Shown here in pieces: positions 14,213 through 14,328 of a stretch of DNA of 64,000 nucleotides. The translations under genes were made by a program, and so were the position numbers. Each line of letters opens with the position of its first letter. Positions within the stretch are counted from its first letter, which is position 1. The notes beneath the pieces were generated by a model. It worked only from the letters and a program-made list of their open reading frames with translations. It made no database searches and was not told where the DNA came from. Source of the DNA: Burkholderiales bacterium (GTDB lineage Bacteria; Pseudomonadota; Gammaproteobacteria; Burkholderiales; SG8-39); NCBI GenBank assembly GCA_035624235.1, contig DASPRX010000145.1, forward strand, positions 5,241 through 69,240, given 5' to 3'.

Positions 14213-14328
14213 GCTTATGCAGGGCTGCGGAGCGCAAGTGTGAATTAATTCACACTGAATCCGCGTGCGCGTGAGGCCACGACTGACTGGACGTGTACGT
14301 GGCGACGGAGGGTCCGCGCTGCATAAGC
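14213..14328. repeat. 10-bp inverted-repeat pair (GCTTATGCAG at 14213-14222, CTGCATAAGC at 14319-14328) bracketing the CRP-type palindrome
   Basis: Read directly. The arms are exact reverse complements 96 nt apart, inside the long non-coding region. Confidence 0.6.
14237..14256. promoter_or_regulatory. Perfect 20-bp palindrome AGTGTGAATTAATTCACACT, a CRP/Clp-type box (TGTGA-N6-TCACA)
   Basis: Read directly, with TGTGA at 14239-14243 and TCACA at 14250-14254. It matches both half-sites of the CRP/FNR-family (CRP, Xanthomonas Clp) consensus. A second isolated AGTGTGA half-site lies at 14054-14060. Confidence 0.6.

Follow-up and report, generated by a model that had tools for sequence, protein, structure and literature searches.

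We report here on a perfect 20-bp palindrome, AGTGTGAATTAATTCACACT, that lies in the control region of an rpfF-like gene on a 64,000-nucleotide stretch of DNA (the window) from an uncultured Burkholderiales bacterium, a betaproteobacterium; the gene encodes a crotonase of the diffusible signal factor (DSF) synthase family. By comparing the window with related loci from genome and metagenome scans (labeled L plus a number), we found that the half-sites of the palindrome are kept in close relatives and that motifs of the same type recur ahead of rpfF-like genes in other lineages and are enriched there. Based on these sequence patterns, we think it rather likely that the palindrome is a functional operator, read by a homodimeric helix-turn-helix (HTH) regulator with CRP-type geometry that would be encoded elsewhere. 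In kind, it is very probably an ordinary and evolutionarily kept genetic switch for a CRP-like regulator, and the general picture of how such operators work is unchanged by it. The most unusual features that we saw are the positional turnover of the motif, including a copy within a coding sequence, and a conserved leader of rpfF without a match in Rfam.

An earlier reading of this stretch (the original prediction) had described the palindrome, and all the coordinates that it gave are exact; the distances quoted there as ~340 and ~235 bp measure 338.5 nt from the palindrome's center to the rpfF-like ATG (13908, minus strand) and 236.5 nt to the ATG (14483) of a divergent 78-aa open reading frame (ORF). 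The core of the palindrome, TGTGA-N6-TCACA (TGTGAATTAATTCACA), spans 14239 to 14254 without a mismatch, that is, as two inverted TGTGA pentamers exactly 6 bp apart. The length of the palindrome is by itself not significant: 62 of 200 shuffled windows (31%) have, somewhere, a perfect palindrome whose arms reach 10 nt or more. The exact core, on the other hand, is present once in the window compared to 0.02 expected, and in only 2 of 100 dinucleotide shuffles. The heptamer AGTGTGA has four copies in the window compared to three expected, three of the four being inside the 574-bp intergenic region between rpfF and the 78-aa ORF.

The window and three related loci (L170, L175, and L176) represent four species with a common intergenic architecture and RpfF identities of 94 to 100%, and in all of them the motif is found 209 to 211 nt from the −35 element of the predicted rpfF promoter, amid flanks that are only moderately conserved and with an 85-nt insertion/deletion nearby. 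The four versions read AGTGTGA-ATTAAT-TCACACT in the window, AGTGTGA-CCCAAG-TCACACT in L170, AGTGTGA-CTTAAG-TCACATT in L176, and AGTGCGA-CATAAG-TCACACT in L175, so that at least 13 of the 14 half-site bases are kept and the center differs at 3 to 4 of its 6 bases. Fixed half-sites around a changing center, within changing flanks, are the signature of a site read by a symmetric protein dimer without base-specific contacts to the center. The palindrome is also intact in all six same-species contigs that reach it; among the same-species contigs (L161 to L169), 1 to 4 single-nucleotide differences fall in the intergenic region and none in the palindrome, at a divergence too low to be informative.

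Motifs of the form RGTGTGA-N6-TCACACY also precede rpfF-like genes in further Burkholderiales lineages, amid flanking DNA too different to align, each at one of a few well-fixed offsets from the conserved promoter: 47 nt in L004/L087 and, separately, in L006/L086/L090; 93 nt in L001/L094 and, separately, in L104; and 454 nt in L173/L178/L179. In the L004 group, the upstream neighbor is a co-directional flavin adenine dinucleotide (FAD)-dependent oxidoreductase gene in place of the small ORF, and the motif still keeps its fixed offset from the rpfF promoter, which indicates that the motif travels with rpfF; the target of the palindrome is thus probably rpfF rather than the 78-aa ORF. Among the sister lineages, in which this oxidoreductase gene (PF12831) is placed between the small ORF and rpfF, L179, L004, L008, and L010 have it intact; in L173 it is broken into two ORFs, and L178 and L174 have a pseudogene. 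In L173, L178, and L179, the CRP-type motif is located inside the oxidoreductase gene (L179:909-928, with homologous positions in the other two). In L179 it is read in frame within the intact ORF as GGT GTG AAA AAA GTC ACA CGC (GVKKVTR, where L004 has GVGKVLR) and takes two of the three AAA codons of that ORF and its sole ACA codon, the G+C content at third codon positions being 0.83. This spelling in rare codons points to selection on the DNA word itself. A search with tblastn detected no remnant of the oxidoreductase in the intergenic region of the window, and the flanks are dissimilar (z about 0); we therefore rejected the idea that the palindrome is a relic of the coding sequence seen in L178 and L179 and, the flanks being unrelated, do not claim the window-type and L178-type motifs as one inherited site. 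Together, these loci offer an example of binding-site turnover, in which one type of operator stays with one gene but changes position, in one lineage to the inside of a neighboring coding sequence.

We quantified the association of the motif with rpfF across about 1.05 Mb of related loci, excluding those of the same species. Matches of at least 20 bits to a position weight matrix number 20 in 104.6 kb (−700 to 0 of rpfF) compared to 1 in the other 942 kb, an enrichment of about 180-fold that is tempered by the matrix being partly built from sites that it then scores; outside the training set, the counts are 11 upstream of rpfF and 1 elsewhere. A model-free count of the exact core gives 7 and 1, respectively, and across all measures the enrichment ranges from about 60- to 180-fold. 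The pooled half-site (n = 34) reads A21 G26 T29 G34 T33 G33 A29, followed by variable A/T-rich positions. Its GTGA core is of the CRP type, with G at core position 2 in all 34 half-sites and at position 4 in 33 of them, and the FNR-type TTGA was never seen.

A fortuitous palindrome without function, which the abundance of equally long palindromes in shuffled windows would allow, is very improbable in view of these results. The exact core is far too rare by chance, its half-sites are conserved at orthologous positions, it is enriched upstream of rpfF across about 1 Mb of related loci, and one relative writes it in rare codons within a coding sequence; moreover, the unrelated flanks argue against the enrichment being an artefact of shared ancestry among all sites.

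The position of the palindrome relative to rpfF depends on a predicted σ70-type promoter. In an alignment of about 75 distinct loci, the pattern TTGC-N17/18-T(C/T/A)TAAT is invariant or nearly so at about 110 to 135 nt before the ATG, which would place the transcription start of rpfF in the window near 14000. By the predicted start, the sites of the 47-nt class in relatives are centered at about −83.5, which fits the class I position, whereas those of the 93-nt class (−128.5), the window's own class (209 to 211 nt), and the 454-nt class (about −490) fit neither class I nor class II.

Several observations weigh against the operator reading or at least against a simple form of it: (i) a consensus promoter scan of 13800 to 14600 called no σ70-like site, and for this reason the promoter call rests on conservation and the start is a prediction; (ii) the palindrome is centered at about −246.5 relative to the predicted rpfF start, far outside the classical class I and II positions, with none of the distances −41.5, −61.5, −72.5, −82.5, and −92.5 being matched in the window; (iii) the offsets of 47, 93, 209 to 211, and 454 nt have no common helical phase; (iv) the palindrome is likewise about 200 bp from the likely promoter of the 78-aa ORF (about −199 from its likely start); (v) the sister lineages L171, L172/L081, and L174, with RpfF identities of 88 to 92%, have no distal motif, which must therefore be dispensable; (vi) in L143, L096, and L136, a matching palindrome lies inside a transcribed leader hairpin, implying either a different regulatory sign or a coincidence; and (vii) no CRP/FNR-family gene was found in the window or the fetched flanks, by tblastn with Escherichia coli CRP and FNR and by a Pfam search of 39 window ORFs, the only match of that kind being an HTH_26 protein at 25947 to 26708. 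The original prediction had named too great a distance from any promoter as grounds for dismissing the site, and about 246 bp from the predicted start goes part of the way there.

Some of these points suit a different explanation, namely, that the site is functional now, or was once in this lineage, but is displaced here, with little or no effect on rpfF, or that it controls the small ORF or an unannotated transcript. Apart from the large distances on both sides and the loss of the motif in three sister lineages, it has in its favor the intergenic region, whose length varies from 210 to 1376 bp in the window's clade and which in relatives contains the oxidoreductase gene or pseudogene. Furthermore, neither strand showed us a conserved promoter beside the palindrome; a class I or II promoter there was rejected upon inspection, with the hexamers CATAAG and TAGAAG being at wrong or nonconserved distances. 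Yet a neutral relic would not be expected to have perfect half-sites that are kept, amid drifting neighbors, in three relatives at 94% and are intact in every same-species contig that covers them, and we give a displaced site only a small chance.

If the palindrome is an operator of rpfF, its two inverted RGTGTGA half-sites would be read by a dimer, with the six mostly A/T-rich base pairs of the spacer left unconstrained. In relatives of the 47-nt class, the regulator would occupy a class-I-like activator position. In the window, it would have to act at a distance by DNA bending or looping, possibly together with an invariant block that also holds an AGTGTGA heptamer; alternatively, there may be an unrecognized promoter nearer to the palindrome or else the effect of the palindrome in this genome may be only weak.

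The invariant block is a 31-nt segment, GGACAATAAGCCTAATTTGTCACACTTTTCC (in the sense of rpfF), immediately ahead of the −35 element; L081 and L170 to L180 have it in nearly the same form, with variable sequence on either side. Its AGTGTGA heptamer at 14054 to 14060 was listed in the original prediction as a further half-site; the position is exact, and the partner half within the invariant block is unlike TCACA, which makes a role as a half-site questionable. Read as a CRP-like site, the block would be centered near −63.5, but its second half (AGGCT) mismatches TCACA. The block also has a GACAA-N10-TTGTC dyad. It may be a half-site, a site for another factor, or an UP-like element. A weak CRP-like 16-mer, TGCGAAACATTGCACA, overlaps the −35 hexamer with 8 of 10 core matches, one of its halves being supplied by the −35 element TTGCAC itself, and has better-matching counterparts in L001 (TGTGACAGATTGCACA), L094 (CGTGATGGATTGCACA), L104 (GGTGAAGCATTGCACA), and L174 and L178 (CGTGAAACATTGCACA).

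The form of the motif suggests to which protein family its regulator could belong. E. coli cyclic AMP (cAMP)-CRP sites are 22 bp long, and their class I position is −82.5. The motif is like them in its symmetry, its TGTGA core, its N6 spacer, its invariant GTG, and its unconstrained center, and it differs in having AG rather than AAA as its outer flank and in the positions −128.5, −246.5, and about −490, which fit neither class. We also considered that the operator is real but serves a dimer outside the CRP/FNR family, such as an XRE- or lambda-type repressor or another HTH protein with half-sites 11 bp apart. Conserved half-sites around a free center suit many HTH dimers, variable offsets without a common helical phase are atypical of CRP-type activation, and there is no CRP-family gene nearby. 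However, a GTGTGA half-site with an N6 spacer is exactly the CRP/Clp/Vfr consensus, and the 47-nt class, at about −83.5, occupies a known class I position. LacI/GalR-type sites depend on a conserved CG at the center, and the spacers of TetR- or GntR-type sites are shorter, neither of which matches the motif. On balance, we consider a dimer of another family unlikely and keep to an operator of the CRP type.

Other known elements were compared as well. The palindrome contains TGT-N10-ACA, as in NifA-type upstream activating sequences, and its variable and large distances are like those of enhancer-binding proteins. A σ54/NifA arrangement was rejected nevertheless, with no GG at the required GG-N10-GC spacing upstream of TTGC and a σ70-like TnTAAT 17 to 18 nt downstream of it instead. 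An ARG-box or a LacI-type site was rejected as well, the spacing and the free center not fitting. A mobile element, such as a miniature inverted-repeat transposable element, was rejected on the grounds that the 8-nt direct repeat AAGTGTGA (14053 and 14236) has no internal terminal inverted repeats and that the flanks of the motif differ between lineages.

The closest parallel in biological context is given by the operators of Clp in Xanthomonas campestris and Stenotrophomonas maltophilia, which have the same consensus and belong to hosts with DSF signaling through RpfF, RpfC, and RpfG. As the original prediction had stated, TGTGA-N6-TCACA is the Clp consensus, which we could confirm for both Xanthomonas and Stenotrophomonas; cyclic di-GMP (c-di-GMP) releases Clp from DNA, and RpfG lowers c-di-GMP and thereby frees Clp for DNA binding (bioRxiv 10.64898/2026.02.02.703240). 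Clp is also known to bind promoters of the DSF-turnover gene rpfB (PMC7205486), and in the Clp literature that we examined we found no description of a direct control of rpfF by Clp. The locus studied here encodes, besides the RpfF-family synthase, a hybrid kinase of the RpfC type and an HD-GYP protein of the RpfG type, as in the Clp/c-di-GMP DSF circuit. It differs from the known cases in that the host belongs to the Burkholderiales and not to the Xanthomonadales, about 246 bp separate the site from the predicted start, and no clp-like gene was seen.

The original prediction had proposed that a Clp/CRP-family regulator closes a feedback loop on rpfF or on the small ORF. Of this proposal, the CRP-type operator tied to rpfF is borne out by its conservation and enrichment, the small ORF as its target is not, and, since no CRP/FNR gene was found in the window or the fetched flanks, the regulator, its ligand, and the loop are what we infer; whether such a regulator would activate or repress rpfF is likewise a matter of conjecture. 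Given the RpfC- and RpfG-like genes, a Clp-like feedback loop is a plausible conjecture here. The most complete scenario, in which a Clp-like regulator of the CRP family, with c-di-GMP or a cyclic nucleotide as its signal, exerts direct transcriptional control over the DSF synthase gene from an enhancer-like site that tolerates different distances (−83 to about −490, even within the coding sequence of an upstream gene) in combination with a two-hairpin leader, we put forward tentatively, as a rather doubtful one. If a Clp- or CRP-like protein does bind the palindrome, DSF production would be coupled to a nucleotide second messenger through the transcription of the synthase gene. This would add a feedback step, in widespread uncultured soil betaproteobacteria, to a quorum-sensing circuit known mainly from the Xanthomonadales, and such a transcriptional loop on the DSF synthase would be one that is undescribed in the Xanthomonadales models.

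The palindrome is bracketed by two inverted 10-mers, GCTTATGCAG and CTGCATAAGC, which according to the original prediction could close a ~115-nt stem-loop if the region is transcribed. They are indeed exact inverted copies and extend to 13 nt with one mismatch, and repeats of this kind (10 nt, exact, gap up to 150 nt) are common, with 37 in the window compared to 32 in shuffles. The stem-loop fared less well, its closing stem not being conserved in any of the three 94%-identical relatives: in L170, 5 of the 10 bases of the right arm are changed without compensation and the 85-nt insertion/deletion lies between the arms, and in L175 and L176 we found no complementary arm. The 116-nt segment of the window folds with z = −4.7 on the plus strand and −4.6 on the minus strand, scores that are biased because the segment was picked for its inverted repeats, whereas the L170 counterpart is no more stably folded than shuffles (z = −0.4 and −0.25). 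The outer inverted repeat is thus probably fortuitous.

These folding scores bear on a further explanation, by which the palindrome is a structural nucleic-acid element, either as an RNA or DNA hairpin by itself or as part of a structured RNA bounded by the outer repeat. In its favor, the pair formed by positions 8 and 13 of the palindrome is A-T in the window and C-G in L170, L175, and L176, and a matching palindrome tops a leader hairpin in L143, L096, and L136. But on both sides the predicted promoter lies downstream of the site, there is no terminator-like T-tract after the site, no match in Rfam was found, and the low z-scores of the window are offset by the choice of segment, the unconserved closing stem, and the shuffle-like L170 segment. 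We regard a structural role as having a very slight chance, and a DNA operator as the better account of the palindrome.

The transcript of rpfF itself is predicted to start with a conserved structured leader, composed of a GGGA motif, a first hairpin (P1), an AGGCGA-like linker, a second, terminator-like hairpin (P2), and a Shine-Dalgarno sequence. Of 77 distinct leaders, most have this two-hairpin layout, the P1 tops being unrelated in sequence. Because the hairpin tops cannot be aligned, RNAalifold, applied to MAFFT alignments, recovered only basal hairpin pairs, and the window's leader alone is not unusually stable (z = −0.74). Rfam searches, at gathering thresholds in the window and 12 relatives and with relaxed E-values in 13850 to 14520, gave only tRNA and noise and no family for the leader. 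In a scan of 13800 to 14600, the only terminator-like match was the leader hairpin, reported on the plus strand, antisense to rpfF. At position 13950, in the stem of P2, the same-species contigs except L166 have T in the sense of rpfF where the window has C, a change that replaces a G-C pair with G-U and leaves the stem intact. In L143, L096, and L136, AGTGTG-N8-CACACC tops the first leader hairpin, about 62 nt before the rpfF ATG, and would there serve as a DNA site and at the same time, lying downstream of the predicted start, as an RNA stem. The leader could be an attenuator, a protein-binding leader (with GGA motifs at both ends), the source of a small RNA derived from the 5′ untranslated region, or an undescribed riboswitch.

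The genes of the locus are arranged in the order tRNA-Leu, rpfG-like, rpfC-like, Haem_oxygenas_2, rpfF-like, the 574-bp intergenic region, the 78-aa ORF, and panC, and the positions of all features are collected in Table 1. For the rpfF-like product, the best relatives of solved structure are RpfF proteins (6dgn, 3m6m, and 5fus; E about 1e-52), and it retains both catalytic Glu motifs (GGGFE and LPE). It scores above the cut-off of NCBIfam NF006452 and under that of the RpfF equivalog (218 bits compared to 550). With RpfF as its closest structures, the Glu motifs retained, NF006452 passed, and the strict equivalog failed, "DSF-synthase family" is a fair label. Proteins identical to it were found in soil and wetland metagenome contigs and in the metagenome-assembled genome GCA_035624695.1. 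The Haem_oxygenas_2 gene has the same place in every listed relative with called genes, and its product is possibly a signal-modifying enzyme. The 78-aa ORF is conserved as the divergent neighbor of rpfF-like genes in many Burkholderiales relatives, where it has a conserved upstream motif of its own (AATTTACCCGAT...CAACAAGG), and has no match in Pfam or NCBIfam.

Table 1. Positions in the window of the palindrome, the elements around rpfF, and the neighboring genes
Feature	Position	Strand	Remark
Perfect 20-bp palindrome AGTGTGAATTAATTCACACT	14237-14256	none	Center 14246.5; candidate operator for a dimeric CRP-type regulator
Left arm of outer repeat GCTTATGCAG	14213-14222	none	Exact inverted repeat; judged fortuitous
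Right arm of outer repeat CTGCATAAGC	14319-14328	none	Exact inverted repeat; judged fortuitous
Predicted σ70-type rpfF promoter	14007-14035	−	−35 TTGCAC 14030-14035, 17-nt spacer, −10 TCTAAT 14007-14012
Invariant 31-nt block GGACAATAAGCCTAATTTGTCACACTTTTCC	14049-14079	−	Just upstream of −35; holds AGTGTGA 14054-14060
Weak CRP-like 16-mer TGCGAAACATTGCACA	14029-14044	−	Overlaps −35 hexamer; status uncertain
Conserved structured 5′ leader	13909-14000	−	GGGA motif, P1, linker, P2, Shine-Dalgarno sequence
Hairpin P1	13965-13996	−	Conserved GG..CC base, variable lineage-specific top
Terminator-like hairpin P2	13932-13953	−	G+C-rich; U-tract after P2 in most relatives
Shine-Dalgarno sequence GGGGAAGGGAGG	13914-13925	−	
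rpfF-like gene, DSF-synthase-family crotonase, 308 aa	12982-13908	−	Pfam ECH_1 match; probable regulated gene
Haem_oxygenas_2 protein (iron-containing redox enzyme)	12267-12938	+	Convergent with rpfF, between rpfC and rpfF
RpfC-like hybrid kinase with Hpt domain	9663-12194	+	
RpfG-like HD-GYP response regulator	8566-9663	+	
Weaker CRP-like site TGTGAGGAATATCACC	8456-8471	+	About 102 nt upstream of rpfG-like ATG; 1 core mismatch; status uncertain
Divergent 78-aa ORF (MYAIVYKADGFPVCRQ...)	14483-14719	+	Called as a gene in relatives

Upstream of the rpfG-like gene, the left half of the weaker site TGTGAGGAATATCACC is kept in L170 and L174, and its right half degenerates there to TCTCC and CGCCC. 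The form TGTGA-N6-TCACC, as in TGTGAGGAATATCACC, was bound by Clp of S. maltophilia in electrophoretic mobility shift assays (bioRxiv 10.64898/2026.02.02.703240). Many relatives without a CRP-type motif carry another palindrome, (T)CAGGGA-N3-TCCCTGA, fused to the −35 element (CCCTGATTGC); it abuts the −35 element in L002, L007, L012 to L017, L019, L023, L024, and L041. A related sequence, CCCTGATTTTCAAGGG, is found upstream of the rpfG-like gene in the window (8478 to 8493), L170, and L174, and the CAGGGA-type palindrome may be the operator of a second regulator common to rpf genes.

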